This document shows, piece by piece, positions 1,882 to 46,503 of a DNA stretch of 64,000 nucleotides. Every line of letters starts with the position of its first letter. Within the stretch, counting starts at the first letter, position 1. Source of the DNA: Chitinophagaceae bacterium (GTDB lineage Bacteria; Bacteroidota; Bacteroidia; Chitinophagales; Chitinophagaceae); assembly GCA_037190885.1 (NCBI GenBank), contig JBBCJQ010000006.1, positions 34,190 to 98,189 on the forward strand, read 5' to 3'. A program made the position numbers and the translations under genes. The notes beneath the pieces were generated by a model. The model ran no database searches, was not told the DNA's origin, and saw only the letters and a program-made list of their open reading frames with translations.

Positions 1882-3237
1882 TTAATTTTTCATCCTGTAC
1901 TTTTTATTCACTTTGGGGCTGTTGAAGTATTTATCCAGGTCTGCCTCGGAGTCTTCTATTTCCACGAGGGGTACTTCTATCAGTTGGGTTTGAATTTCCC
2001 GCATGGAATCCCGCATTTTCTGGGTTTTGGCTATTATTTCCGGGTCCCGTTCGCCTACCAGCGCATTGTTCTGCAGAGAATATTCAAGCCTTTTAATGGC
2101 ATTCCTGATCAGTGTGGCGGAGTTTTGTTTTTGTTCCGATGTTTTGCTGGGGGCCACGCTTTCTTTAACGGGTACCATGGCCACCCCGGCGCTTGGCAAT
2201 ATCTTTCCGGCCGTTTTCTGCCCGTCCGTCGGCAGTGAAGAGAATACGGTCCCGCCCAGCGCGGTAGCCGCCGAACTCAGTTCAAACGATGTTCTGGTGT
2301 TCTTTGTTCGTTTTACCTGCTTATCCAGGTGCATAAAGGTAGCCTTCAATTGATTGATATACCTGTTCGTTGCTCTTTTGACATCTTCATGCTCCAGCAC
2401 TTTTTGCGGGTAGTTGATATTTTCCTTAACAACGATATTCACGACTGCTGTATCGCGTACATTAAATTTGTTTGACCCGATAAAGTTTACCACTACTTTT
2501 TTCTCTTTGCCTGCATCGGTACTTTTTACAAAACCATATGGCGGGCTCCAGATAAAATCGTCCCCGCATTTTGTGACCACACCGATCGTTTTCAACGGGT
2601 AATTGCTGGTCATGGTGATCTTTTCTATCGGGAAGCTGCCATCCTCACACTGTACCTTAAAAGCGATGCTATCGCCTTCATCCACATACAATATATTATT
2701 GACAGCCGGTTTTACCCGGGAAGGAATGATCTCCGTATTATAAAACAACAAAATAAAAGACGTGTCGAGCTTGTCCTGGGGATTGTCCAGGTTTTGAATA
2801 CCCAGCTGCACTTTGTATTCCGTATCATATTTCAGCCTGCCCGACAGGAAAAAGCCTTTGTCTGCCTTAAACCTGAGCAGACCGGTATTCCGGTTGATGC
2901 GAAGCCCTACGGGAGCGTTCATCAGGTACCAATAGTAATGCGACTGGTCTTTGTTGATCTCCAGTTCATATTCCAGGGTGGAGTCAACGTGGAGTGTAAT
3001 ATAAGGGTTGAGGTTCCTGATCCTCAATTGTGAATCTTCCTGCTCTATTGGGGTGAAAATAGTATCGTTACCCGTCGTTTCGTTTAAAACCGGGGTTTTT
3101 GATGTGTCTGTAACCGGAACTTTCAATGTGTCTGTGACGGGCGCCGGGACCTTCAGGGTATCAGGTTCCTGTGCAGACACCGGAAGAGAAAAGCCAATTA
3201 CCAGCGCTAAAGCCCAGATCAAAAATTTATTGATCAA
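1882..3237 (-). CDS. Secreted protein of unknown function with a possible Ig-like (cadherin/He_PIG-type) region and a C-terminal helical region
   Basis: 451-aa ORF with signal peptide MINKFLIWALALVIGFSLPVSAQ. DTLKVP short repeats follow the signal peptide. YYWYLMNAPVGLRINRNTGLLRF resembles putative Ig-domain repeats. No catalytic motif was recognised. Confidence 0.55.
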   Translation of the reverse strand: MINKFLIWALALVIGFSLPVSAQEPDTLKVPAPVTDTLKVPVTDTSKTPVLNETTGNDTIFTPIEQEDSQLRIRNLNPYITLHVDSTLEYELEINKDQSHYYWYLMNAPVGLRINRNTGLLRFKADKGFFLSGRLKYDTEYKVQLGIQNLDNPQDKLDTSFILLFYNTEIIPSRVKPAVNNILYVDEGDSIAFKVQCEDGSFPIEKITMTSNYPLKTIGVVTKCGDDFIWSPPYGFVKSTDAGKEKKVVVNFIGSNKFNVRDTAVVNIVVKENINYPQKVLEHEDVKRATNRYINQLKATFMHLDKQVKRTKNTRTSFELSSAATALGGTVFSSLPTDGQKTAGKILPSAGVAMVPVKESVAPSKTSEQKQNSATLIRNAIKRLEYSLQNNALVGERDPEIIAKTQKMRDSMREIQTQLIEVPLVEIEDSEADLDKYFNSPKVNKKYRMKN

Positions 3238-3270
3238 TTTTCCAGTCTTTATGGGTTAAATAATTGAGTG

Positions 3271-3278
3271 CAAAAGTA
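3271..3278 (-). promoter_or_regulatory. Candidate Bacteroidota sigma-A -7 box (TAnnTTTG)
   Basis: The minus strand reads TACTTTTG, about 34 nt upstream of the ATG at 3237. This is a motif match only. Confidence 0.35.
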
Positions 3279-3334
3279 GTGCATTATGCAGTAATTAAAC
3301 TTGTAAAGGCTTTTAATATTGTTTACAGTATTGC

Positions 3335-3379
3335 TAAAAATTAAAAAGGCATGCTGCATGAATTCATGTCAGCATGCCC
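3335..3379 (-). terminator. Intrinsic terminator of the Hsp20 gene
   Basis: 9-bp stem GGCATGCTG/CAGCATGCC (3348-3356 and 3370-3378), followed on the minus strand by TTTTTAATTTTT. Confidence 0.65.
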
Positions 3380-3412
3380 GCCTTACTAATCCAACCACAC
3401 ATCACACTGCGT

Positions 3413-3847
3413 TTAGCTGATGGAGATCTGACGGGTAGAGGGTTGCAGATCTTCTTTTTTAGGTACACGCACTTTTAGCACACCATCCTCGTATTTTGCC
3501 TGGATGGCGTCTGCATTCACTTTATCGCTCAAAGTGAAGCTCCGCTTAAAGCTCTCAAAGCTGAATTCCCTCCGGACAGTTTTATACTCATCACTATTGG
3601 TCTCTTCTTTTTTCTCATACGAAATGGTCAGTAAACCATTGTCTACAGAAATATGGATATCTTCTTTTTTAAGTCCGGGTACACTTACCTCCAGGTGATA
3701 GGCATCTTTGGTCTCGTGAATATTCACCGGTACCTTACTCAAAGCGTTCCAGCCGGTATCTTTTCCCCAGGTTTCGTTAAACAGTTCGTCCAGGAAAGAA
3801 CCCCATACTTTGGGTGTAGCTGTGTTGTTTACTTTCAAAAGTCTCAT
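3413..3847 (-). CDS. Hsp20/alpha-crystallin family small heat-shock protein
   Basis: 144-aa ORF. The alpha-crystallin domain pattern is present: PVNIHETKDAYHLEVSVPGLKKEDIHISVDNGLLTISYEKK ... YEDGVLKVRVPKK. Confidence 0.9.
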   Translation of the reverse strand: MRLLKVNNTATPKVWGSFLDELFNETWGKDTGWNALSKVPVNIHETKDAYHLEVSVPGLKKEDIHISVDNGLLTISYEKKEETNSDEYKTVRREFSFESFKRSFTLSDKVNADAIQAKYEDGVLKVRVPKKEDLQPSTRQISIS

Positions 3848-4045
3848 GGTCTTATTTTTTTAATGGTTTGGAATTGTTTGTTTGACCTTCCATGATCAAA
3901 TGATATTCCAATGGCAACTATGTGAGATTTTTGAGCCAGGATGGCAAGGTGTAGGGATGGTTTATGACAAAATGACCTGATTATTCCCTTCTTGTAGACA
4001 AAATGTCTTTTCGTGTTTGAGCAACTAAGCAAGCAAGCTTTTGCT

Positions 4046-4053
4046 TACCTTTG
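4046..4053 (+). promoter_or_regulatory. Candidate -7 box TACCTTTG (TAnnTTTG)
   Basis: It lies 18 nt upstream of the ATG at 4072. It overlaps the TTG start proposed in the ORF track (4051), which argues for the ATG at 4072. Confidence 0.4.
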
Positions 4054-4071
4054 CAGCTAAACTTTTTAAAC

Positions 4072-4488
4072 ATGTATCCAGCAGAAATAGTAATTCCGAT
4101 GAAGGAGGAGTTGACCGACTACGGTTTTGAAGAATTGTTAACTCCCGAACAGGTGGACAATGCACTTGAGCAAAAAGGCACCACCCTGATAATGATCAAC
4201 TCGGTATGCGGTTGCTCGGCAGGCAGCGCCCGGCCGGGGGTACTGATGGCCGTACATAATGCAGCCAAAAAGCCGGATCACCTTACCACCAGCTTTGCAG
4301 GTTTTGATATAGATGCGATAAAAAAATTAAGAGAGCATCTCTTACCTTATCCACCGTCTTCTCCTGCTATTGCGTTATTTAAAGACGGGCAGCTCGTTCA
4401 TTTTATAGAAAGGCACCAGATCGAAGGACGCCCCGCTCAATTGATCGCGAGTAACCTGATCGCTGCGTTTGATGAGTTTTGTAATTAA
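4072..4488 (+). CDS. Bacilliredoxin (BrxA/BrxB, YphP/YqiW family thiol-disulfide oxidoreductase)
   Basis: Collinear with recalled B. subtilis YphP: PMKEELT..GFEEL, the NSVCGCSAG redox motif, PSSPAIALFKDGQLVHFIERHQIEG. Start moved to the ATG at 4072. Confidence 0.85.
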   Translation: MYPAEIVIPMKEELTDYGFEELLTPEQVDNALEQKGTTLIMINSVCGCSAGSARPGVLMAVHNAAKKPDHLTTSFAGFDIDAIKKLREHLLPYPPSSPAIALFKDGQLVHFIERHQIEGRPAQLIASNLIAAFDEFCN

Positions 4489-4561
4489 GACCGTAAAATG
4501 GTAAGATGGTAAGACTGTAAGATGGTAAGAGGCCATCTTACAGTCTTACAATTTTACGGTC
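4489..4561 (+). repeat. Long imperfect hairpin built of GTAAGA-like units; probable terminator and member of a dispersed repeat family
   Basis: GACCGTAAAAT...GTAAGACTGTAAGATGG-loop-CCATCTTACAGTCTTAC-AATTTTACGGTC begins right after the stop codon. Its 33-nt left arm recurs at 45107-45143 with 3 mismatches. Confidence 0.7.
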
Positions 4562-4605
4562 TTGCCATTTTACAGTAACATTGCGGTTCAATTCAATAAA
4601 AACTT

Positions 4606-5883
4606 ATGTATCCCAATCTATACTTTTTTCTGAAAGATACATTTGGCGTAGAACCCTGGGGCTGGACAAAATATATCAATTCCTTCGGATTTTTTGTTGC
4701 CATCGCATTTGTAGCAGCGGCAGTGATATTGACAAAGGAGCTCAAGAGACGGGAAAGATTGAAGTTGTTGTTCCCGGTAGAAGAGACAGTGACCGTAGGT
4801 AAACCAGCCTCCACCGGAGAACTGATCTCCAACGCGATCTTCGGCTTCCTGGTCGGGTTTAAGTTGCTGGGTATCTTTTTCGGTGACCACGGATTGTCTC
4901 CGCAGGAGTATATCTTTTCATCAAAAGGGAGCTGGCCCGGAGGATTGCTGTTGGCCGGTCTTTTCGTATGGCTTAAATACCGCGAAAAAAATAAGCATAA
5001 GCTGGCGAAGCCGGAAGAACGGAAGGTGAGGGTTTGGCCCCATGAAAGGGTAGGAGATTTTACGGTGTTGGCTGCTATATTCGGGTTTACCGGTGCCAAG
5101 CTTTTTGATAACCTGGAAAACTGGGAGCGATTTATACAAAACCCGATCGAGAACCTGCTATCGCCCAGCGGACTTACCTTTTACGGGGGGCTGATCTGCG
5201 CTACCATTGCTATATTATGGTATGCCCGCAAGAAGAAAATATCGATACGCCACCTGGTGGACTCCGCTGCCCCGGCGCTGATGCTGGCCTATGCCATCGG
5301 AAGGATAGGCTGCCAGGTAAGCGGGGATGGCGACTGGGGGGTGCCTAACAGCGCCTATATTACCAATAGCGAAGGAAAGGCTGTGCTGGCCCAACCGGGT
5401 GATTTTGATAAAGCGGTGGAACAACACAAAGCCATTTTTACCGCGGAGTTCGGGTCAGCGCCCATACCGCATATATATACAAAAGCACCTTCCTTTTTAC
5501 CAACCTGGACAGTAGCTTACCCATATGCCCATAACGTAAATGAAGAAGGGTTCCGCATAGCCGGCTGTGAAGGCGAATATTGCACAGCACTGCCGGTACC
5601 CGCTTATCCGACACCGTTTTATGAAACCATCATGTGCACCATTTTATTTGGTATCCTCATGTTATTGAGAAAAAAGATCTCCATTCCCGGCCAGATCTTT
5701 GCCATTTACCTGGTACTGAATGGGATTGAACGCTTCCTGATCGAAAAGATCAGGGTAAATACCAAGTATGATATATTCGGTTTCCATCCCACGCAGGCAG
5801 AACTCATATCTTCCCTGATGGTGATCGTTGGCGTCGTCCTTTACTTCTGGCTGAAAAAGCTCCCTCTGCCGGTCAGGAAATAA
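4606..5883 (+). CDS. lgt: Prolipoprotein diacylglyceryl transferase (long Bacteroidota form)
   Basis: 425-aa polytopic ORF. Lgt signatures are present: GLTFYGGLI, GRIGCQVSGDGDWG, YPTPFYE. Confidence 0.85.
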   Translation: MYPNLYFFLKDTFGVEPWGWTKYINSFGFFVAIAFVAAAVILTKELKRRERLKLLFPVEETVTVGKPASTGELISNAIFGFLVGFKLLGIFFGDHGLSPQEYIFSSKGSWPGGLLLAGLFVWLKYREKNKHKLAKPEERKVRVWPHERVGDFTVLAAIFGFTGAKLFDNLENWERFIQNPIENLLSPSGLTFYGGLICATIAILWYARKKKISIRHLVDSAAPALMLAYAIGRIGCQVSGDGDWGVPNSAYITNSEGKAVLAQPGDFDKAVEQHKAIFTAEFGSAPIPHIYTKAPSFLPTWTVAYPYAHNVNEEGFRIAGCEGEYCTALPVPAYPTPFYETIMCTILFGILMLLRKKISIPGQIFAIYLVLNGIERFLIEKIRVNTKYDIFGFHPTQAELISSLMVIVGVVLYFWLKKLPLPVRK

Positions 5884-6000: not shown

Positions 6001-8448
6001 ATGAAAAATCTTTTTATATTATTGATAATTATCTCTTTATCCTCATTGGGACAGGCACAGGGTAATAAGATAACCGGTTTGACACAGTCGGATACGCCGC
6101 TGGAAGCGGTTACCGTTTCCCTGCTGAAAAGCCGGGATTCCAGCCTGGTGAAGACAGAAATAACCAACCGGGAAGGGAAATTTGAGTTTACAGGCGTCGC
6201 CGATGGCGTCTACCTGCTACATTTCAGCATGACCGGGTTTCAGCCCTTGTATAGTGAGCAGATACAACTGGATGGCCGGGATTGGGATGCCGGCGTCGTT
6301 ACCCTTTCCCCGCAAAGCAGGGAACTGACAGCAGTAACGGTAACGGCCAAGCGACCATTGATTGAGCAAAAAATTGACAAGCTGGTGGTGAATGTAGATG
6401 CTGCTCCTTCCAATGCAGGGGCTACCGCTATGGAAGTGCTGGAAAAGTCGCCCGGCATTATTGTGAACAACGACGGCGTGATCAGTCTGAAGGGAAAGCC
6501 GGGCGTGGTGATCATGATGGATGGAAAACCTACCTATCTTTCGGAGGCAGACCTTGCCAACCTGCTGAAAAACACACCGGCTTCGAGCATTGACCAGATC
6601 GAAATTATGTCGAACCCTTCTTCAAAATTTGATGCCGCAGGTAACTCTGGTGTTATTAATATCAAAACAAAAAAAGGATTGAAGACCGGCTGGAACGGAA
6701 GCATTATGGTGGGCGCCAGCGCGGGCTTGTTTAAGAGGGGAGATGCTATGCTTGTTATCCCCAGGTCGCAGAATGCGTTGAATTTTAATTACCGCAGGGA
6801 AAAGCTCAACATTTTTGGAAGCTATAACCCGAATTTTAACCGTAACGCGCGGGAACTGAAGCTGGTGCGCAGGTTTTATAACACGGACGGCAGCCTGAAT
6901 TCGTATGCAGACCAGGTAACCGATTTTGACGGCGTGAATAACAACCATAGCGCCAAACTGGGAGCAGATTATTATATCAATAATAAAAATGTGGTGGGAG
7001 TGGTGTTTACCGGTTTCGGATTTTTCGGACGCTTTGAACCGGGTACCACTACCGCTATCAAAGATCCGGACAGCCTTATCATGTCCGGGCTCAATACCTC
7101 TACAAGCAATACACTGCGGTTTTTGAACTATACATCCAACATTAACTACAAGCACAGCTTTGACAGCACGGGCCGGGAGTTTACCGTTGACTTGGACTAT
7201 GTGAGATACGACAACAATTCCGATATGCTGCTGACTACCCTTGTAGTAGACAAACCTGGCAACGAAACGGACCAGACACAATTAAAGGGGGACCTGCCGT
7301 CAAAGATCGATATATATTCCCTGAAGGCAGATTATATTCATCCGCTGGATCAGAAAACAAAGATCGAGGCAGGCATTAAAACCAACTTCATTAAAAATAA
7401 CAACCTGGTGAATTACTGGCGGAGTGCGGAAGGCGGCTGGATACCGGATGCCCGTTCCAACCACTTTATCTACGAAGAAAATATAAATGCCGCTTATTTG
7501 AATGTATCTGCCAAATTGAGTGAAAAATGGAGCACGCAGGGTGGCTTACGGGTGGAGAATACCAATACGAAAGGACACCAGGTGATTTCAGACTCGTCTT
7601 TTACCCGCAACTATACCAACCTGTTTCCATCTGCGTTTGTGAATTATGCCGCTGATAATAACAACCAGGTAACCCTGTCGTATAGCCGCAGGGTGAACCG
7701 GCCGAACTACCAGCATTTAAACCCGTTTATTTATTTCCTGGATTCGCTTACCTACCAGAAAGGCAACCCGTATTTGCTGCCGCAGTTTTCCCATAATATA
7801 GAGCTGGGACATACCTTCAGAAATAAATTCATTACCAGCATCAACTTCAGCAAAACAACGAATGTTATATCCGAGCTGCTGGTGCAAAATACCGGGGAGA
7901 AAACAACTTATGCAACACGGGAGAATATTGCAGGGTTCAGGAACATCGGTCTGTCTGTAACCGCGCCTGCAAAGTGGACCAGTTGGTGGAGCACCAACTT
8001 CTTTGGTAACCTGTATAATAACCACTATAAGGGAAAATACCAGGCTTTTGATATTGACCTGTCCAATACGGCCTTCCTGTTGAATATTACCAACAGCTTT
8101 AGCTTTTCCAAAGGATATACTGCGGAGCTGAGCGGCTTTTACCGTTCCAGAACGGTAGACCAGATGCTGATCATGCACCCGATGTACCAGATGAATATTG
8201 CTTTCCAGAAAACGCTCATGAAAGGAAAAGCAACGCTCCGGCTGAATGTCCGGGATCCGTTTGGGTGGCAGCGGTTCAGCGCTATATCCCGTTACGGCGA
8301 TGTGAATATTACGCTTAAGAATCGCTGGGACAGCCAGCAGGCATCCGCCAGCTTTACGTATCGTTTCGGGAAAAACTCGATAGCCCCGTCCCGGAAACGT
8401 GCAACCGGTGTTTCGGAAGAGATCAACAGGGCGGGACAGTCAAACTAG
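6001..8448 (+). CDS. TonB-dependent-receptor-like outer-membrane beta-barrel protein with an N-terminal carboxypeptidase-regulatory-like domain
   Basis: Signal peptide MKNLFILLIIISLSSLGQAQG. CarboxypepD_reg-like segment (VSLLKSRDSSLVKTEITNREGKFEF). Plug-like motif (MEVLEKSPGIIVNNDGVISLKGK). Long beta-rich C-terminus ending in aromatic-rich strands. Confidence 0.8.
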   Translation: MKNLFILLIIISLSSLGQAQGNKITGLTQSDTPLEAVTVSLLKSRDSSLVKTEITNREGKFEFTGVADGVYLLHFSMTGFQPLYSEQIQLDGRDWDAGVVTLSPQSRELTAVTVTAKRPLIEQKIDKLVVNVDAAPSNAGATAMEVLEKSPGIIVNNDGVISLKGKPGVVIMMDGKPTYLSEADLANLLKNTPASSIDQIEIMSNPSSKFDAAGNSGVINIKTKKGLKTGWNGSIMVGASAGLFKRGDAMLVIPRSQNALNFNYRREKLNIFGSYNPNFNRNARELKLVRRFYNTDGSLNSYADQVTDFDGVNNNHSAKLGADYYINNKNVVGVVFTGFGFFGRFEPGTTTAIKDPDSLIMSGLNTSTSNTLRFLNYTSNINYKHSFDSTGREFTVDLDYVRYDNNSDMLLTTLVVDKPGNETDQTQLKGDLPSKIDIYSLKADYIHPLDQKTKIEAGIKTNFIKNNNLVNYWRSAEGGWIPDARSNHFIYEENINAAYLNVSAKLSEKWSTQGGLRVENTNTKGHQVISDSSFTRNYTNLFPSAFVNYAADNNNQVTLSYSRRVNRPNYQHLNPFIYFLDSLTYQKGNPYLLPQFSHNIELGHTFRNKFITSINFSKTTNVISELLVQNTGEKTTYATRENIAGFRNIGLSVTAPAKWTSWWSTNFFGNLYNNHYKGKYQAFDIDLSNTAFLLNITNSFSFSKGYTAELSGFYRSRTVDQMLIMHPMYQMNIAFQKTLMKGKATLRLNVRDPFGWQRFSAISRYGDVNITLKNRWDSQQASASFTYRFGKNSIAPSRKRATGVSEEINRAGQSN

Positions 8449-41871: not shown

Positions 41872-41912
41872 TAAGAAAGCAAGTCCCACCCCGGTAAATG
41901 AGGTGGGACTGC
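41872..41912 (-). terminator. Probable terminator closing the rtcB-prfH operon
   Basis: AGTCCCACC/GGTGGGACT 9-bp stem (41882-41890 and 41902-41910), followed on the minus strand by TGCTTTCTT. Confidence 0.45.
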
Positions 41913-41924
41913 TTTGCCGGAGGA

Positions 41925-42539
41925 TCAGCACAGGCTTTCGCGGATGGTTTTCACCGGGTTCCCTCTTTCCAGTATGTTGTGCTCCTGCCATTGCTCCTGT
42001 TTTTGTTTGGTGAGTTCGCCTGCATACCAGTCTTCCACTTTTTCTTTCAAACGCTGCAGGCATACCTTTTTGTTCTGTACCTGCGACCGGCTATCCATCG
42101 CCAGCACCTGTATGCCGGAGGGGATATGCGTGCCCCGTACTGCCGTTTCTACTTTATTCACATGTTGCCCGCCAGGCCCGGAAGCCCTGCAGGTTTCCAG
42201 CACGATGTCCTTTTCATTCCATCGCTGCTGTTCCTGTATCCCGAAAAAGGCAACGCCTGCAAACCAGTTCTTTCGTTTGTGCATGGTACGGTAAGGGCTG
42301 GGGGCTATCCATTGTATAGTGCCTTCCCAGGTTGCCCGCAGTGATCCGGACTTACCCGTATACAGCAGCGTAGTGGAAAGCAATGTTCCTTTCAAGGTAC
42401 CTTCTATACTGTCGAGTACCGTTATTTCGCCACCCGTTTCCCGCGCCTGCTTTATGATCTTTTCCTGCACTTTCGCCACGACGCGGGTGCATTCTACCGG
42501 GCCGCGGCCGGCTGTTATCTGTATCAATATTTTGTCCAT
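41925..42539 (-). CDS. prfH: Peptide chain release factor H (PrfH)
   Basis: 204-aa ORF collinear with recalled E. coli PrfH: QITAGRGPVEC, GTIQWIAPSPYR..RKNWF, the GGQ motif SGPGGQHVNK, ERGNP. It is adjacent to rtcB. Confidence 0.9.
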   Translation of the reverse strand: MDKILIQITAGRGPVECTRVVAKVQEKIIKQARETGGEITVLDSIEGTLKGTLLSTTLLYTGKSGSLRATWEGTIQWIAPSPYRTMHKRKNWFAGVAFFGIQEQQRWNEKDIVLETCRASGPGGQHVNKVETAVRGTHIPSGIQVLAMDSRSQVQNKKVCLQRLKEKVEDWYAGELTKQKQEQWQEHNILERGNPVKTIRESLC

Positions 42540-42542
42540 AGT

Positions 42543-43940
42543 TTATTCTTTATTCATTCTTACGATCCGGGGCATAAATATGCCTTCAGTTTCTACGAGG
42601 TGCTGCTGTGCCTGCATCACTTTGTGAATGTCCTTATATGCCAGCGTGTTTTCTTCCACGCTTCCGCCTATGAGGGTGACACCGGCATTTGACAGCATTT
42701 TTTTCATGGCGCTGACGGTCATGGATTCCTTCGCTTTTTTCCGGCTCATGGCCCTGCCTGCACCATGTGAAGCTGAGTTGACCGCCCTGTCGTTGCCCTT
42801 GCCTCTTACGAGAAAAGCGGGTGTGGTCATGCTGCCGGGGATGATGCCCGTTTCTCCGGTGTGTGCCGGTGTAGCGCCTTTCCGGTGTACGATGCATTCC
42901 CTGCCGTTCACCTGTTCTTTCCAGGCAAAATTGTGGTGGTTTTCCACGCAACCCAGCGACTGCAGCCCCAACGCTCTCAGCAGGTTGGCATGTATCCTGT
43001 CGTGACAGGCTTTTGCATAGGCGCCCGCCAGGTTCATGCTCAGCCAGTATTCCTGTCCGGCCTCGCTATCCATATCCAGCCAGGCCAGCGATCTTGCTTC
43101 CGAAGGCAGGCGACATATGTCCATAGCCTGTTTGGAATAATGCATGGCAATATGGGCGCCCAGTCCCCGGCTGCCGGAGTGAGACAGGATAGCCAGGTAT
43201 TCCCCGGCGGGTAAAGCCAGGGAATTCTGCGTATACAATTCTACCAGTCCGAACTCCACAAAATGATTGCCGCTGCCGGAGCTGCCCAGTTGCTTCGCCG
43301 CTTTCCCGTGCAGGTTTTTCAGTAACCCGGTGGCTCCAAATCGTGGGTCGTCCAGTACCGCATGCTCCTGCTTTTGTTCCAGGTGGCCTTCTGTGCCGAA
43401 ATGTGTGTGTTCTTTCAGTGCCATTTTTGCCTGGTGTGCATACTGCTTCAGAAAACCTGCACCTGCATCGGTAATAGTCAGCGCCATCCTGCACCCGATG
43501 TCCACACCTACGGCATAAGGAATAACAGCGTTTTCCGTTGCCAGCACGGCTCCTATCGGTAATCCATACCCGGTGTGAGCATCGGGCATCATAGCCCCCT
43601 GTATAGCCACCGGCAGCGACATGGCAACTTCCATCTGTGTTTTGGCAGAACGTTCGATACCGGCGGCTCCGAATATATGGAGCTGCCCAGCCGCCGTCAG
43701 CAGGTCGAAGCTTTTAAAACTCATTTCCTTTTCTTCGGGTGCCAACGCCACCGCTACTTTTCCCCACACTTCATGCCGGCGGTATTGCTCCGGTCGGGCC
43801 TTAAGCGTGCTCAGTATTTCCAGCAGTTCCTGCCGACCGGTGTGTTTACAATGTTTGGCAATGGTATTTACGAGCAACGATCTTGTCTGGTTGTCGGTAA
43901 ATCCCAGCTTGCTTAATTCTTTTAATTTTATTTGTGTCAT
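42543..43940 (-). CDS. rtcB: RtcB-family RNA 3'-phosphate ligase (PrfH-associated)
   Basis: 465-aa ORF. Metal and GMP-histidine motifs: MPDAHTGYGLPIG, GSGNHFVEFG, HSGSRGLG, ENHHNFAW, HGAGR. Confidence 0.95.
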   Translation of the reverse strand: MTQIKLKELSKLGFTDNQTRSLLVNTIAKHCKHTGRQELLEILSTLKARPEQYRRHEVWGKVAVALAPEEKEMSFKSFDLLTAAGQLHIFGAAGIERSAKTQMEVAMSLPVAIQGAMMPDAHTGYGLPIGAVLATENAVIPYAVGVDIGCRMALTITDAGAGFLKQYAHQAKMALKEHTHFGTEGHLEQKQEHAVLDDPRFGATGLLKNLHGKAAKQLGSSGSGNHFVEFGLVELYTQNSLALPAGEYLAILSHSGSRGLGAHIAMHYSKQAMDICRLPSEARSLAWLDMDSEAGQEYWLSMNLAGAYAKACHDRIHANLLRALGLQSLGCVENHHNFAWKEQVNGRECIVHRKGATPAHTGETGIIPGSMTTPAFLVRGKGNDRAVNSASHGAGRAMSRKKAKESMTVSAMKKMLSNAGVTLIGGSVEENTLAYKDIHKVMQAQQHLVETEGIFMPRIVRMNKE

Positions 43941-43941
43941 A

Positions 43942-44673
43942 TTATACTTCGTTAATGAGATCCATTATTTTTTCTACGGGCTGCTTAAAAATGCTTTTCA
44001 GCTTTTTTTCTTCCGGGGGACGTTGCCTCCACTTGTAGGATTTTCCGTATACCAGCCTGTTAATGTCGTTCCTCAGGTGTTTACGAACGATGGTATTATC
44101 CAGGCTCTGGCGTTCAGCCATCAATTTCTTATCCAGCTTTTTAACATGGGTGATCATATGTGGCGCTATCCTTAGCCTGTAACGCCAGGGATCGTTGAAT
44201 ACATACACGATGAAAATCCCCTTTTTGTGAACTTGCACAACCGGATGAAAATGCATTTTTTCTTTTTCATCCAGCTTCAGCTTGTTGTGTAACCATTCCC
44301 ATTCCGTAATTTCCCTTAGCTTCTGTTCACGGGCCACCCGGATGCGTTTCCCGTGTTTTAGTTTTTTCTTTTTAAAGTCACGGTTATTGCTGTACGATAC
44401 TGTGTTGATCTTTTGCAGCAACGATTGATAGAAACCGGCCATCCTGCTGCGGGCTACATCTTCCCGCAGGACAAAAAAGCGTTTCCATCCTTTCTGATAG
44501 GGTTGCTCCAACGGGATCATGGGCAATGCTCTTATTTGCTGGTCAATTGCTCTTTCTTCCCGATGCATCGCTATCAGTTGCTTGTCCCGTTCTTTTTTTA
44601 CCAGGCGTTTTTTCTGTCTTTTGGTTTTGAGTGTATACGACAAAAAGTCCCCCTGTTCTATATGTGTGCACAT
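43942..44673 (-). CDS. Hypothetical lysine/arginine-rich protein, first gene of the rtcB-prfH operon
   Basis: 243-aa ORF. Its stop is 1 nt from the rtcB ATG. No recognisable family motif. Strongly basic runs: KRQKKRLVKKERDK, KKKKLKHGKRIR. Confidence 0.6.
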   Translation of the reverse strand: MCTHIEQGDFLSYTLKTKRQKKRLVKKERDKQLIAMHREERAIDQQIRALPMIPLEQPYQKGWKRFFVLREDVARSRMAGFYQSLLQKINTVSYSNNRDFKKKKLKHGKRIRVAREQKLREITEWEWLHNKLKLDEKEKMHFHPVVQVHKKGIFIVYVFNDPWRYRLRIAPHMITHVKKLDKKLMAERQSLDNTIVRKHLRNDINRLVYGKSYKWRQRPPEEKKLKSIFKQPVEKIMDLINEV

Positions 44674-45106
44674 ATGAACCTATATAAAACCGATAATCAG
44701 TTACAGGTTATGTTCGTCCTTTACAGAAAGGAGATAGCCCGCGCTACTGCATTACAAAACAAGTAACCGTATACGTTACACTTAACAGGAAAACGAATGC
44801 ATGAAGTAAATCTGCCTGATCAGGCGTGGATTACAAGGGGCGATATGTAGTATTGTTCCAGCATGGTAATTGTGTATTTAAAGGGTTACACAATTATTGT
44901 TTGAGGGTGCAAAGTTGGAATATTATTTTTAATAAAACAATAGCCGCTTATTCTTTTTTCAAAAGATAATATAAATTGAATCTGCATCCCACGGCATGGG
45001 GGAATCTATGTATCCGGCGGGTGGAGACCCGTGGGACACCTGCCGCCTAAAAGACGCCGAGCCCCCTTTGGGAGACATCGGCGATGAAGTGGTTCTTAAG
45101 TTGCGA

Positions 45107-45162: not shown

Positions 45163-46503
45163 TTATCCCTTCTTATTGCGCGGGTTATTGTTGCGGTTTT
45201 GATTACTGTTATTTCCCTTATTGTTTGGATTATTGGGATTGTTGCCCCTGTTATCGTTCCGCCTGGATTGCTGCGGTTTTTCGCGGTCGTTCCGGTTGCG
45301 GTCTTTGTTCCGGTTATCACTGCGTTGTTCACCCCTGTTATCACTGCGCTGCTCGTTCCTGTTATCGCGGTTTTTGTTCTGGTTACGCTTTGCTTTATTT
45401 TTCCTGCTGTTCCTTTCCAGGGTACCCAGGCTGATCTGTCCCACCACATCTACAAATTCGGGCTCCACTTCTTTCGGGTGGTTGCTTTGCACTTCTTCCG
45501 ACTCCAGTGTTTCCACTTTGGTGCCTTTCAGGTTCTGGGATCTTATATGGCGTACCGTGGCAATAGACAACGCGTATTGCCGGGTGCTGTCCGGGAGGGT
45601 GTACCACATCATGCTCCGGAAAATATCTTTCTTGATCAGGAGGGCATTTCCCTTCAGTGTTTCCAGGATATCGGCATTATCCGGAAATCCCTGCAAAGCA
45701 TCCAGGTAGGTATCCAGCTCATAGTTCAGGCAGCATTTCAGCCGGCCGCACTGTCCGCTGAGCTTGGTTTGATTGATGCTCAGGTTCTGGTATCGGGCGG
45801 CAATAGTAGTTACACTCTTGAAGTTGGTCAGCCAGGTGCTGCAGCAGAGCTCGCGTCCGCAACTGCCGATGCCGCCTACTTTGGCTGCTTCCTGACGGGT
45901 ACCGATCTGCTTCATTTCCACCTTTACCTTAAACTCGGAAGCATATGCTTTGATCAGCTCACGGAAGTCAACCCGCCCGTCCGCCGTATAAAAGAAAGTA
46001 GCTTTCCGTCCGTCTGCCTGTATCTCTACTTCAGAAAGCTTCATTTCCAGGTTCAGCTTTCTGGCGATCGACCGGGCCCGCATCAGCGCTTCAGGTTCCC
46101 GGAGCTTGGTCTGGCGGTACAATTCCAGGTCGCGGTCGCTGGACCGGCGAAGTATCTTTTTGATCTCGGGATTGTTTTCGTCTATCCCCCTTTTCTTCAG
46201 TTGCAACCGTACCATTTCGCCGCTCACACTCACTTCTCCCACGTCAAAGCCACTCACTCCTTCCACGGTTACCAGGTCACCTTTTTCGTATAACTGAACG
46301 GTGGAATTACGGTAAAAGTCCTTCCGGCTGCCATTGTTAAAGCTTATTTCCACTATGCGGCAGGCGCCGTCATCATCCGCCAGGGGGAGATTTCTCAGCC
46401 AATCGTGAACATTCATACGATTACAACTGCCCGTACTGCATCCGCCATTGCTCTTACATCCTCCGGGTTTTCCCGAGCTAGTGCCACAACTACTACAACT
46501 CAT
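45163..46503 (-). CDS. PSP1-domain protein (RicT/YaaT homologue) with a Cys-rich N-terminus and a low-complexity R/N/D-rich tail
   Basis: 446-aa ORF. Cys cluster MSCSSCGTSSGKPGGCKSNGGCSTGSC. PSP1 core (GGIGSCGRELCCSTWL ... CGRLKCCLNYE). C-terminal ~90 aa of NR/DN repeats. Confidence 0.85.
   Translation of the reverse strand: MSCSSCGTSSGKPGGCKSNGGCSTGSCNRMNVHDWLRNLPLADDDGACRIVEISFNNGSRKDFYRNSTVQLYEKGDLVTVEGVSGFDVGEVSVSGEMVRLQLKKRGIDENNPEIKKILRRSSDRDLELYRQTKLREPEALMRARSIARKLNLEMKLSEVEIQADGRKATFFYTADGRVDFRELIKAYASEFKVKVEMKQIGTRQEAAKVGGIGSCGRELCCSTWLTNFKSVTTIAARYQNLSINQTKLSGQCGRLKCCLNYELDTYLDALQGFPDNADILETLKGNALLIKKDIFRSMMWYTLPDSTRQYALSIATVRHIRSQNLKGTKVETLESEEVQSNHPKEVEPEFVDVVGQISLGTLERNSRKNKAKRNQNKNRDNRNEQRSDNRGEQRSDNRNKDRNRNDREKPQQSRRNDNRGNNPNNPNNKGNNSNQNRNNNPRNKKG

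Follow-up and report, generated by a model that had tools for sequence, protein, structure and literature searches.

The basic protein of 243 residues encoded directly upstream of rtcB and prfH in the window (the whole stretch of 64,000 nucleotides that was analysed) represents an unnamed family of Bacteroidota, and it is RtcB, not PrfH, to which this family is tied. Its gene, called the orphan here, is real and no chance ORF, because it has homologues with a conserved start and length and a confident AlphaFold2 model. We consider, at a probability of about 0.4, that the protein binds RNA or ribosomes and assists the RtcB-centred repair of the translation apparatus as an accessory subunit, its synthesis being controlled by a leader and kept in step with that of RtcB. 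The upstream ORF in this leader, the architecture of the operon and the patterns of co-occurrence are direct observations.

Organization of the operon

The orphan ORF occupies positions 43942..44673 of the minus strand, is the first cistron of the operon, and encodes a protein with the N-terminus MCTHIEQ. A single base (43941) lies between its TAA codon (43944-43942) and the ATG of rtcB (43940-43938). The rtcB gene (42543..43940, minus strand) ends with TAA at 42545-42543, and three bases further on the ATG of prfH (41925..42539, minus strand) starts at 42539. The operon is closed by an intrinsic terminator-like hairpin at 41882..41910 of the minus strand, which has 11 pairs, seven of them G-C, and a loop of 7, followed by TGCTTTCTT. 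The first-pass annotation had described a tight minus-strand operon with gaps of 1 and 3 nt and this hairpin, and all of these features were confirmed. In related loci the distance from the orphan stop to the ATG of rtcB ranges from -14 to +15 nt (71/71 loci), and the two genes overlap in 15. This stop-start overlap means that the orphan protein and RtcB would be synthesized at similar rates.

RtcB from the window, an RNA 3'-phosphate ligase of 465 residues (Pfam RtcB, E=9e-74), contains the motifs DAHTGYG, GSGNHF, NHHNF, and SHGAGR, as read in the translation. It has an additional N-terminal segment of about 94 residues; NCBIfam matches begin at residue 95, and the score against TIGR03073 (release_rtcB) is 134.7 bits, under the cut-off of 271.8. 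PrfH, of 204 residues, scores 231.5 bits against TIGR03072 (release_prfH; cut-off 166.65), and its translation contains the GGQ motif (SGPGGQHVNK). PADLOC gave 0 families for all three proteins. The composition of the region is ordinary and its flanks are of the housekeeping type (PSP1, RecO, and a luciferase-like protein). A horizontally transferred island was considered and rejected, the composition being unremarkable, and no integrase or transposase was found near the locus.

The orphan family

A first search gave 159 homologues, and an exhaustive profile search gave 1,035 cluster representatives at E<=1e-3; in other words, the family comprises about 1,000 clusters at 50% identity in Bacteroidota. 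It is conserved across the orders of this phylum, with a steady divergence of sequence. The protein from the window has 59 Lys and Arg versus 28 Asp and Glu residues, 13 of the basic ones within residues 1-50, and a pI of 10.3. The first-pass annotation had called it conspicuously basic, and this property extends to the family, whose members are all strongly basic (median pI 9.97, net charge +24). Such a charge fits RNA or ribosome binding.

The AlphaFold2 model has a mean pLDDT of 89.2 and a pTM of 0.69, so the protein is a folded domain and more than a charged tail. In the model, a long basic helix is predicted at the N-terminus (residues 18-49), further basic helices are predicted at the C-terminus, and the predicted β-rich core carries the invariant Gln, Gly, Trp, Arg, Asn, and Phe residues. 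Conservation falls mainly on Arg, Lys, Trp, Phe, Asn, and Gln residues, which form neither a catalytic triad nor a metal site. Gln60, Arg65, Asp72, Asn90, Glu138, and Asp181 are the invariant or nearly invariant polar residues. At position 172, many members have Asn in place of His (PHMI/PNMI).

The protein had 0 matches in Pfam, NCBIfam, PADLOC, and PHROGs, and no recurring family was found when 30 members were searched against Pfam at E<=10. The top match of the family profile among PDB sequences was uS4m, which was not significant (E=0.47). The best Foldseek matches of the model in the PDB and BFVD had E values of 0.7 and 0.2 with TM scores of 0.17 or less, which means that there is no fold match. 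The failure to place the protein in any family from its sequence holds for the searches of Pfam, NCBIfam, and PDB sequences and for Foldseek alike, and the structural search gave no confident match to an unrelated housekeeping family. No homologue was present in 2.9 million viral contigs. A relationship to the Zn-ribbon accessory protein that co-occurs with the orphan was rejected (hhalign probability 0.1%). Fused domains were also rejected for the longer members (300-420 residues), whose extensions had no Pfam match and look like read-through.

Gene neighbourhood

The neighbourhood was surveyed for 80 orphan loci, in which rtcB was sought within 6 kb. It was found within this distance in 54 loci and directly adjoins the orphan in 46; in 24 there is no rtcB within 6 kb. 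The synteny of the orphan with rtcB spans many Bacteroidota genera, as expected from a conserved co-operonic partner. The arrangement with both rtcB and prfH is seen in only 32/80 loci, whereas nine have rtcB without prfH, five have the order rtcB then orphan, and eight are RlaP islands in which rtcB lies 2-5 kb from the orphan. Two loci (L083 and L085) have the orphan followed by prfH without rtcB, and in five Pedobacter loci the orphan stands alone between katG and SusC/D. About 17 loci (14 from gene maps and three more from tblastn) have the order orphan, RtcB, a Cys-rich protein of 203 residues, PrfH, and TPR protein; the TPR and Zn-ribbon accessory genes of PrfH operons thus adjoin the orphan in related loci.

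In Chitinophagaceae, arrays of 8-14 tRNA genes are located directly upstream of the orphan, and a third type of upstream ORF follows the arrays in these repair islands. The immediate partner of the orphan there is a PF04308 RNaseH-like enzyme; two RlaP proteins as well as AAA, Band-7, and WYL proteins are the other partners.

The reverse survey covered 56 informative related PrfH modules, of which 28 have the orphan and 28 do not; it is present or absent even among close relatives. Since only half of the modules have it and only 32/80 orphan loci have the arrangement with prfH, the orphan is not a constant component of the PrfH-RtcB2 module. The first-pass annotation had proposed an undescribed third component of the rtcB-prfH module and a census of homologues immediately 5' of the pair. 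The co-operonic partnership stands, and the adjacency to rtcB is common, but the component is not dedicated to the pair. "Undescribed" was too strong, because a fitting charged accessory protein is found in Burroughs and Aravind 2019. The roles offered in that annotation (targeting of damaged 30S/70S particles, regulation, and immunity) are not told apart by the evidence, none of which favours a toxin or immunity function.

The leader and its upstream ORF

The block most conserved 5' of the leader in the alignments is located at 44910..44917 of the minus strand, about 45 nt upstream of the upstream ORF, and reads CAACTTTG in the window and TAnnTTTG in the relatives. As TAnnTTTG is the -7 promoter consensus of Bacteroidetes, this box is a candidate promoter element. 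It is followed by the hairpin P1 (44867..44896, minus strand; TAATTGTGTA ... TACACAATTA, 10 bp), which is predicted in both the MFE and the centroid folds of the window leader and ends 2 nt before the ATG of the upstream ORF. A hairpin is found at this position in 42/42 unique leaders; its distance from the ATG is 0-8 nt, and 0-5 nt in 41 of them. The stems comprise 28 different sequences, and z averages -2.5, with -9 for the hairpin in the window.

The upstream ORF itself (44820..44864, minus strand; MLEQYYISPLVIHA, stop TGA) has 14 codons and encodes a putative leader peptide. It occurs in 45 loci with 37 unique DNA sequences and 31 unique peptides, in which Met1, Ile7 (always ATA), Ser8, and Ala14 are invariant. 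Synonymous variation is seen at the conserved residues (GAA/GAG 16:15, TCG/TCA 22:15, and all four GCN codons). When 161 sequences were scanned on both strands, 48 matches were obtained, all on the strand of the module and at most one per locus, and none was obtained in 20 shuffled windows. Judged from these comparisons, the ORF has a coding signature of fixed length and synonymous variation. A conserved leader with such a 14-codon ORF appears not to have been described before, and the short coding sequence probably senses failing translation.

The stop codon of the upstream ORF is in the loop of a palindrome or hairpin, P2 (44814..44825, minus strand; GCCTGATCAGGC), whose helix was kept by RNAalifold in 26/26 aligned leaders. 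Closer to the orphan there is a conserved box (44713..44740, minus strand) made up of GGGCTAT, a hairpin TCCTTT/AAAGGA, and CGAA, which is near-invariant across genera. The complementarity between codons 7-10 of the upstream ORF and the 5' half of this box is accompanied by compensatory changes. Duplexes between cognate ORFs and boxes have a mean energy of -8.11 kcal/mol, versus -7.48 kcal/mol for non-cognate pairs (permutation p=0.003) and -4.55 kcal/mol for shuffled boxes. RNAalifold yielded only two short helices from the full-length alignment, because the middle of the leader aligns poorly.

The overall fold of the window leader was no better than that of shuffled sequence (z = -0.60), and the long-range helix P3 seen in the relatives is not evident in it. 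A classical terminator was rejected for the window-type leader, as the hairpins in it have energies of only -1 to -6.7 kcal/mol and no conserved position; in the window, GTAAC/GTTAC plus TTGTTTTG gives -3.0 kcal/mol. Rfam identified no leader family in the window leader and four related loci, and its matches elsewhere were Flavo-1 repeats and a tRNA. The leader also carries Shine-Dalgarno-like sequences and an internal hairpin of the Shine-Dalgarno/anti-Shine-Dalgarno kind (TCCTT/AAGGA). The use of Shine-Dalgarno sequences is largely avoided in Bacteroidota; in the leader, they could allow the sensor to respond to the condition of the 16S 3' end directly.

The same leader and upstream ORF are found before the orphan, before rtcB (L082, L084, L086, L089, and L092), or before a solitary orphan (L002, L006, and L018). 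The leader precedes the unit whichever gene comes first, and therefore the orphan, rtcB, and prfH belong to one regulon.

A variant of the Flavobacteriia type has an upstream ORF of 27 codons, with a conserved coding pattern like that of the 14-codon type in the sequence comparison. An intrinsic terminator follows 23-28 nt later in 41/48 matches. The alternative pairings 1:2, 2:3, and 3:4 have energies of -10.3, -16.0, and -18.7 kcal/mol, respectively, and by computation the antiterminator stays unless a ribosome gets to codon 17 or beyond. As predicted from these pairings, this variant is a textbook leader-peptide terminator/antiterminator.

Proposed function

In the accessory-subunit reading, expression of the operon would rise when ribosomes translate the short upstream ORF poorly, as upon ribotoxin damage or other translation stress. 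The cationic orphan protein, with its basic N-terminal helix and β-rich core, might then bind broken RNAs of the translation apparatus, the candidates being the 16S rRNA of 30S subunits and/or tRNA, in each case after cleavage. The protein would hold the RNA ends or present them to the enzyme encoded alongside; in most loci this enzyme is RtcB, and in the tRNA-array islands its place is taken by the PF04308 RNaseH-like protein. Where PrfH is present, it would first free the peptide from the damaged ribosome. The orphan would be an optional enhancer or adaptor and no obligatory component.

This reading is based on the conserved operonic coupling to RtcB (71/71 gaps; 46/80 adjacent), on the fact that all other partners of the orphan belong to RNA repair or translation, and on the leader shared across gene orders, which in its Flavobacteriia type combines an upstream ORF with a terminator/antiterminator. 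The strong basicity of the family, the conserved residues unlike a catalytic triad or metal site, and the confident model further support it. In addition, Burroughs and Aravind 2019 (PMC6514570) independently proposed an interaction with rRNA for charged accessory proteins of RFH-RtcB operons. Several observations count against it. The orphan is dispensable for the core reaction, because half of the related PrfH-RtcB modules lack it and RtcB2-PrfH of E. coli works without it (PMC9304027). No homology or fold match backs any activity of the orphan. The 24/80 loci without rtcB within 6 kb, including the five from Pedobacter, could mean a function independent of the ligase. Finally, leaders of the window type have no consistent terminator, and the fold z of the window leader is -0.60.

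A bolder form of the accessory-subunit reading is doubtful. According to it, the orphan would be a specificity factor of new fold that guides RtcB, or else the RNaseH-like enzyme of the tRNA-array islands, to breaks in 16S rRNA or tRNA, and a regulon of the orphan, rtcB, prfH, and tRNA arrays would be induced by at least three unrelated leader-peptide families acting as "ribosome-health sensors". If true, this would be the first described case in a bacterium in which damage to its own translation machinery is detected in cis and induces ribosome repair.

It is unlikely, but worth weighing, that the orphan is a ribosome factor independent of the ligase, which binds damaged or stalled ribosomes or subunits in parallel to PrfH and splits or separates subunits, shields the decoding centre or the 16S 3' end, or parks ribosomes. 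The orphan lies directly before prfH in L083 and L085, which have no rtcB, the solitary orphans keep what may be a translation-sensing leader, and the basicity resembles that of ribosomal proteins. RtcB2 of E. coli repairs the 30S subunit but not the 70S ribosome (PMC9304027), and therefore the pathway has a step at the subunit level. However, the tightest and dominant link is that to rtcB, all 71 gaps being 15 nt or less, and includes the nine loci without prfH. The RNaseH-like partner in the tRNA-array islands points to free RNA substrates, and no ribosome-binding factor similar to the orphan was found by Foldseek.

RNA-repair operons typically pair a ligase with end-healing enzymes, which raises the question of whether the orphan is a new-fold end-processing enzyme (a nuclease, cyclic phosphodiesterase, kinase, or transferase) that makes RNA ends suitable for RtcB or trims RNA after damage. 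The confident globular core of no known fold could hide an active site, and the six (near-)invariant polar residues might contribute to it. We regard this as quite unlikely, because the protein has no HxT/S pairs, P-loop, DxD, or metal cluster, His172 is Asn in many members, and extreme positive charge is commoner in binding proteins. Moreover, RtcB requires no end healing at the 2',3'>P/5'-OH breaks made by toxins of the colicin E3 type.

Wherever the orphan is present, no other gene stands between it and the leader, and the box GGGTATATCCTT...AAGGACGAA seems too invariant to reflect structure alone. This position and the long basic helix of residues 18-49 would suit a regulator of the operon, that is, an RNA-binding protein acting on the conserved leader, for example on this box, or a DNA-binding repressor. 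Nevertheless, the leader and box are unchanged in loci without the orphan (L082 and L084), which, together with the lack of an HTH or known RNA-binding regulator fold among the matches, makes a regulator improbable. Synthesis at a rate similar to that of RtcB would be unusual for a regulator, and the upstream ORF already seems to be a self-sufficient cis-acting sensor.

Although the PrfH-RtcB unit is sporadic and regarded as a counter-conflict module (PMC6514570), and the presence of the orphan varies among close relatives, it is hardly credible that the orphan is a toxin, immunity protein, or mobile-element passenger merely travelling with RtcB, given 0 PADLOC and PHROG matches, no homologue in the viral contigs, no nearby integrase or transposase, the ordinary composition and housekeeping flanks, and its conservation across Bacteroidota orders with steady divergence.

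About half of the sampled PrfH modules of Bacteroidota have the orphan as an extra, highly conserved, and very basic protein. To our knowledge, no pathway other than PrfH-RtcB first rescues a ribosome cleaved by a ribotoxin and then repairs it; work on this pathway, in E. coli and Capnocytophaga, has dealt with a system of two proteins. Since the orphan occurs in these modules and also with other RNA-repair enzymes and arrays of spare tRNAs, it is a concrete candidate for substrate recognition or presentation. The leader peptides give a directly testable model of induction, in which the operon would be switched on when translation slows, and might serve as ready-made reporters of ribosome damage in Bacteroidota.

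Comparison with known systems

Compared with the PrfH-RtcB2 module of E. coli ATCC 25922 (Tian et al. 2022, PMC9304027; PMC9223846), the window likewise has rtcB then prfH, tightly spaced, with prfH above the TIGR03072 cut-off and containing GGQ, rtcB containing all catalytic motifs, and a terminator of its own. The known module mends 16S rRNA that has been cut at A1493, following release by PrfH. The differences are the third cistron upstream, the N-terminal extension of about 94 residues in RtcB, which is under the release_rtcB equivalog cut-off, and the leader with its conserved upstream ORF; such a leader is not described for the E. coli module in these papers.

Burroughs and Aravind 2019 (PMC6514570) list an unnamed charged accessory protein of PrfH-RtcB operons. 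Compared by description only, their "RFR" resembles the orphan: both lack homologues in known families, contain highly charged helices, and are encoded in RFH-RtcB operons, and the loci with the order orphan, RtcB, Zn-ribbon protein, PrfH, and TPR protein hold two other accessory genes from the same paper. The link to RtcB that is stronger than that to PrfH, the occurrence outside PrfH operons (in tRNA-array and RlaP islands, or solitary), the predicted globular fold, and the leader peptides are absent from the text of that paper.

The leader, not the protein, resembles attenuators of the trp/his and erm/cat types in its conserved short upstream ORF with a coding signature and, in the Flavobacteriia type, in a canonical terminator with mutually exclusive 1:2, 2:3, and 3:4 pairings. 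Unlike these, it would control an operon for ribosome and RNA repair instead of amino-acid biosynthesis or resistance genes, and its upstream ORFs have no runs of a single regulatory codon. The 14-codon type of the window has no convincing terminator, and the core of its upstream ORF is predicted to pair with the distal box.

In archaea and eukaryotes, RtcB has a known protein cofactor, archease. The likeness is conceptual only, both being small proteins that could boost ligation by RtcB; archease is acidic, whereas the orphan family is very basic. The orphan was rejected as an archease, since 30 members had no Pfam archease match and none was among the Foldseek PDB matches (E>0.7, TM<=0.13).

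Under translational stress, rtcB and long arrays of tRNA genes are regulated jointly in Anabaena (Santamaria-Gomez et al. 2021, PMC8421152). In Chitinophagaceae, similarly, the orphan comes directly after an array of 8-14 tRNA genes, and RNA-repair genes, rtcB among them, lie downstream; spare tRNAs and RtcB are paired functionally in both cases. The Anabaena system is cyanobacterial, is regulated by direct repeats in the promoter, and has no orphan homologue (PMC8421152), whereas in Chitinophagaceae the arrays and the repair island form one physical unit, and the third type of upstream ORF comes after the arrays.

Organization of the operon

The orphan gene (43942..44673, minus strand) encodes 243 residues and ends with TAA at 43944-43942, one base from the ATG of rtcB at 43940. 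The rtcB gene (42543..43940, minus; 465 aa; Pfam RtcB, E=9e-74) ends three bases before the ATG, at 42539, of prfH (41925..42539, minus; 204 aa; Pfam RF-1 domain), and a terminator-like hairpin at 41910-41882 (minus) forms the 3' end of the operon. The layout drawn in the first-pass annotation was re-found in each of these parts. PrfH is an NCBIfam equivalog (231.5 bits; cut-off, 166.65), and the catalytic motifs of RtcB and the GGQ of PrfH are legible in the translations. About 94 residues at the N-terminus of RtcB (1-94) form an extension that lies beyond every RtcB model, and the score of the protein is below the 'release_rtcB' equivalog cut-off. This extension is common to all Bacteroidota RtcB examined, with or without the orphan.

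The region is of ordinary base composition and the flanks are unrelated to the operon: upstream are a PSP1-domain protein and RecO, and downstream a luciferase-like monooxygenase and an AraC regulator. The PSP1-domain protein (45163-46503) carries a long, Asn/Arg/Gln-rich, low-complexity C-terminal tail at 45163-45420 (NRNEQRSDNRGEQRSDNRNKDRNRND...NNPNNPNNKGNNSNQNRNNNPRNKKG).

The orphan protein family

The orphan is a real gene and a member of a family. The first search gave 159 homologues; all of them lack a Pfam domain, and those that are named are called 'hypothetical protein'. In an exhaustive profile search the cluster representatives numbered 1,035 with E<=1e-3, of which 732 reached E<=1e-10 and 245 reached E<=1e-30; nearly all have 230-260 aa. 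In GTDB data (one genome per species), 82 stretches contained a relative, and 80 were retained as homologue loci. All 80 belong to Bacteroidota (Sphingobacteriales, Chitinophagales, Cytophagales and Saprospirales, with a few MAGs of Flavobacteriales and Bacteroidales). Q60, G62, R65, I89, N90, F100 and F142 are invariant in the alignments, and the conserved blocks are PYQKGWKRFFVLRED, LLxKINT and EPWRFxLxxxPH/NMI. The protein had been called conspicuously basic; its pI is 10.3 and its net charge +31, and the whole family is uniformly very basic (medians 9.97 and +24).

That the protein has no motif of any known family was borne out: it matched nothing in Pfam, NCBIfam, PADLOC or PHROGs, 30 family members searched against Pfam at E<=10 showed no recurring family, and the family had no significant match among PDB sequences. 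Extra domains were not found in its longer members. The AlphaFold2 model, built from a 116-sequence alignment, is confident (mean pLDDT 89.2, pTM 0.69). Its predicted parts are a basic N-terminal helix of considerable length (18-49), a core rich in beta structure (52-178), and C-terminal helices with a low-confidence basic linker. Foldseek found no match for this model in the PDB (best E=0.7, TM<=0.13) or BFVD (best E=0.2); the predicted fold is novel.

Association with rtcB and prfH

The order of the window, orphan-rtcB-prfH, was found in 32 of the 80 homologue loci. Nine loci have orphan-rtcB without prfH (one, L043, keeps a prfH remnant only), two are truncated after rtcB, in five the orphan comes after rtcB, and in eight rtcB lies 2-5 kb downstream. 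The remaining 24 show no rtcB in the available flank, where absence within 6 kb of the orphan does not mean absence from the genome. Twelve of these still lie in RNA-repair-type islands, and five are Pedobacter loci with a solitary orphan between katG and SusC/D. Where rtcB follows, its ATG is at -14 to +15 nt from the orphan stop in 71/71 loci of two data sets, with overlap in 15. One of the 32, from a Saprospirales MAG (L031, 31-2773), is frameshifted, with rtcB and prfH broken into several frames; this decayed module could be due to pseudogenisation or an assembly error.

For the reverse census, 80 metagenome loci were collected around PrfH proteins that share 45-67% identity with that of the window; 56 of these loci had sufficient upstream DNA for a verdict. 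The orphan was upstream of rtcB in 28 and absent in 28. It directly precedes prfH, without rtcB, in L083 (3255-4618) and L085 (1777-3140), and is reduced to a 61-aa remnant in L081 (3813-4618). These counts carry the bias of their starting points, one peptide motif in the forward scan and window-PrfH peptides in the reverse scan, and the gene calls are simple ORF calls plus tblastn. On these counts, the orphan is a frequent yet optional cistron, bound closer to RtcB than to PrfH. Of the earlier proposal of a third rtcB-prfH component, the shared operon with rtcB stands, but the orphan accompanies only part of the PrfH modules, and the pair only part of the orphans.

Other partners

In the Flavobacteriia-type clade, whose PrfH has 229 aa, the order is orphan, RtcB, (203-aa Cys-rich protein), PrfH, TPR protein. 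The Cys-rich (Zn-ribbon-like) protein, whose C-terminus is basic, lies between rtcB and prfH in 21 loci, and the TPR protein, which has 177 aa and a tail rich in Lys, is 3' of prfH in 58 (3393-4004 and 4668-5201 in L104, L107, L110, L113, L123 and others). By hhalign, the orphan and the Zn-ribbon protein are not related (probability 0.1%). A two-component pair, histidine kinase plus OmpR-type response regulator, is conserved directly upstream of the leader in 34 such loci (L101-L159; e.g. L155, 522-1901); it may be a second control layer or just synteny. Copies of Flavo-1 RNA (RF01705) flank these modules (L101, 1363-1439, minus, and 7129-7269; L129, 7183-7324), and one sits between response regulator and leader.

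In a set of Chitinophagaceae loci, a gene for a PF04308 RNaseH-like protein follows the orphan after about 10-20 nt. Beyond it are variable mixes of AAA ATPase, Band-7/SPFH, WYL/WCX regulator, two RlaP nucleotidyltransferases, DUF6169 and RtcB. Directly upstream of the orphan are 8-14 tandem same-strand tRNA genes, the final ones usually Ser-GCT, Phe-GAA and Trp-CCA (L016, L029, L046, L050-L055, L062-L065 and L067, about 3000-5870). Array, orphan and repair genes form a joint spare-tRNA/RNA-repair island. The recurring partners are all of RNA repair or translation, except for the two-component pair and, at the solitary Pedobacter copies, katG and SusC/D.

Leaders upstream of the operon

The intergenic gap 5' of the orphan is about 490 nt long and contains a block conserved across genera. 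This leader (about 44917 to 44674, minus, as are all its elements) starts with a -7-like candidate promoter box (44917-44910), followed by the covarying hairpin P1 (44896-44867), which ends 2 nt 5' of the ATG of a 14-codon upstream ORF, MLEQYYISPLVIHA (44864-44820). A nearly invariant distal box (44740-44713) abuts a TCCTT/AAGGA hairpin. All 42 unique leaders have a hairpin at the P1 position, and 28 distinct versions of its stem occur among them (mean z -2.5). The ORF, of constant length, was found in 45 loci across genera (37 unique DNA sequences). Both strands of 161 sequences gave 48 matches, all on the module's strand and never more than one per locus, and 20 shuffled windows gave none. 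M1, I7, S8 and A14 are invariant, and conserved residues vary synonymously (GAA/GAG 16:15, TCG/TCA 22:15, four Ala codons, three stop codons).

The stop codon is within the loop of a conserved hairpin, and codons 7-10 are complementary to the distal box. This pairing is supported by compensatory changes (CTC/GAG, TTCC/GGAA, GTCCC/GGGAC, GCCC/GGGC); cognate duplexes have -8.11 kcal/mol versus -7.48 for non-cognate ones (permutation p=0.003), and shuffled boxes average -4.55 kcal/mol. Since the leader sequences differ so little from one another, covariation support for the leader is modest. The stability of the window leader is not unusual (z = -0.60), and a consistent terminator was not found in leaders of this type. 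Such a leader precedes whichever gene is first, be it the orphan, rtcB in loci lacking the orphan (L082, L084, L086, L089, L092) or an orphan standing alone (L002, L006, L018).

Codon 7 is always ATA, never ATT or ATC, in the 37 unique sequences; codon 6 (44849-44844 with codon 7) is NAY (Tyr, Asn or His) in 33 of them. The tRNAs reading such codons are targets of known anticodon nucleases. The bias may reflect these targets or a constraint from pairing with the box. The Shine-Dalgarno-like AAGGA(AT) lies 6-8 nt 5' of the ORF in most leaders, and AAGGAGG in three (L038, L066, L074); Shine-Dalgarno sequences are seldom used in this phylum. The conserved TCCTT/AAGGA hairpin (44717-44732) looks like an internal SD:anti-SD mimic.

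The Flavobacteriia-type leader (L097-L160; e.g. L129, about 2040-2300) is nearly invariant, unrelated to the first, and present with either orphan or rtcB as the first gene. Its 27-codon ORF (MFVLTSTSQSFTPNEFGAALLRGLFQS; 37 unique versions) varies synonymously at conserved residues. In 41 of 48 matches, the stop is followed at 23-28 nt by a canonical intrinsic terminator (GCCCGAAGAC...GTTTCGGGC, then a T-run). Mutually exclusive, trp-like pairings were calculated: 1:2, -10.3; 2:3 antiterminator, -16.0; 3:4 terminator, -18.7 kcal/mol. A co-transcriptional snapshot gave the antiterminator as the structure of lowest energy, except with a ribosome at codon 17 or later. On this model, termination would follow where ribosomes translate the ORF efficiently, and read-through where translation is slow, stalled or absent.

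A third conserved ORF (MKKxxQFIM...MVQWHRSFRTEQ..., about 63-67 codons) occurs in tRNA-array loci (L016, L029, L045, L050-L055, L062-L065 and others). It starts about 90 nt 5' of the orphan ATG and overlaps the orphan start in another frame. None of the three leaders matched Rfam, and none of the papers searched brings PrfH together with attenuation, leader peptides or upstream ORFs.

Possible function

Reading function from sequence, we favour the following model, at a probability of roughly 40%. Poor translation of the leader by ribosomes would induce the operon; the orphan protein would bind damaged translation RNAs or subunits and aid the adjacent enzyme, usually RtcB; and PrfH would free the nascent chain. 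A role as a ribosome factor independent of the ligase seems unlikely, at about half that weight, and a new end-processing enzyme is more doubtful still. The orphan might instead be the regulator of its operon, a reading rated slightly below the enzyme. This idea is weakened because leader and box are retained where the orphan is missing. A passenger of a conflict system is very improbable because defence and phage signals are absent (2.9 million viral contigs held zero homologues) and the context is housekeeping.

Comparison with published systems

The E. coli RtcB2-PrfH system was handled as a two-gene operon (PMC9304027), and a 2026 study of a tailed PrfH from Capnocytophaga leaves extra genes unmentioned (PMC12829566). 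Burroughs and Aravind (2019), who call PrfH RFH, described four accessory genes accreted around RFH-RtcB. Since their TPR and Zn-ribbon proteins sit beside the orphan in Flavobacteriia-type loci, the orphan is very probably the fourth of these proteins. The word 'undescribed' in the first-pass annotation thus probably goes too far, although the protein is unnamed, missing from domain databases and uncharacterised. For the tRNA-array islands there is a precedent in Anabaena, where spare-tRNA arrays are paired with rtcB under translational stress (PMC8421152). To our knowledge, four points are new: the primary tie of the orphan to RtcB rather than PrfH, its occurrence both within tRNA-array islands and as a lone gene behind a leader, its confidently predicted novel fold, and the three putative types of leader peptide.
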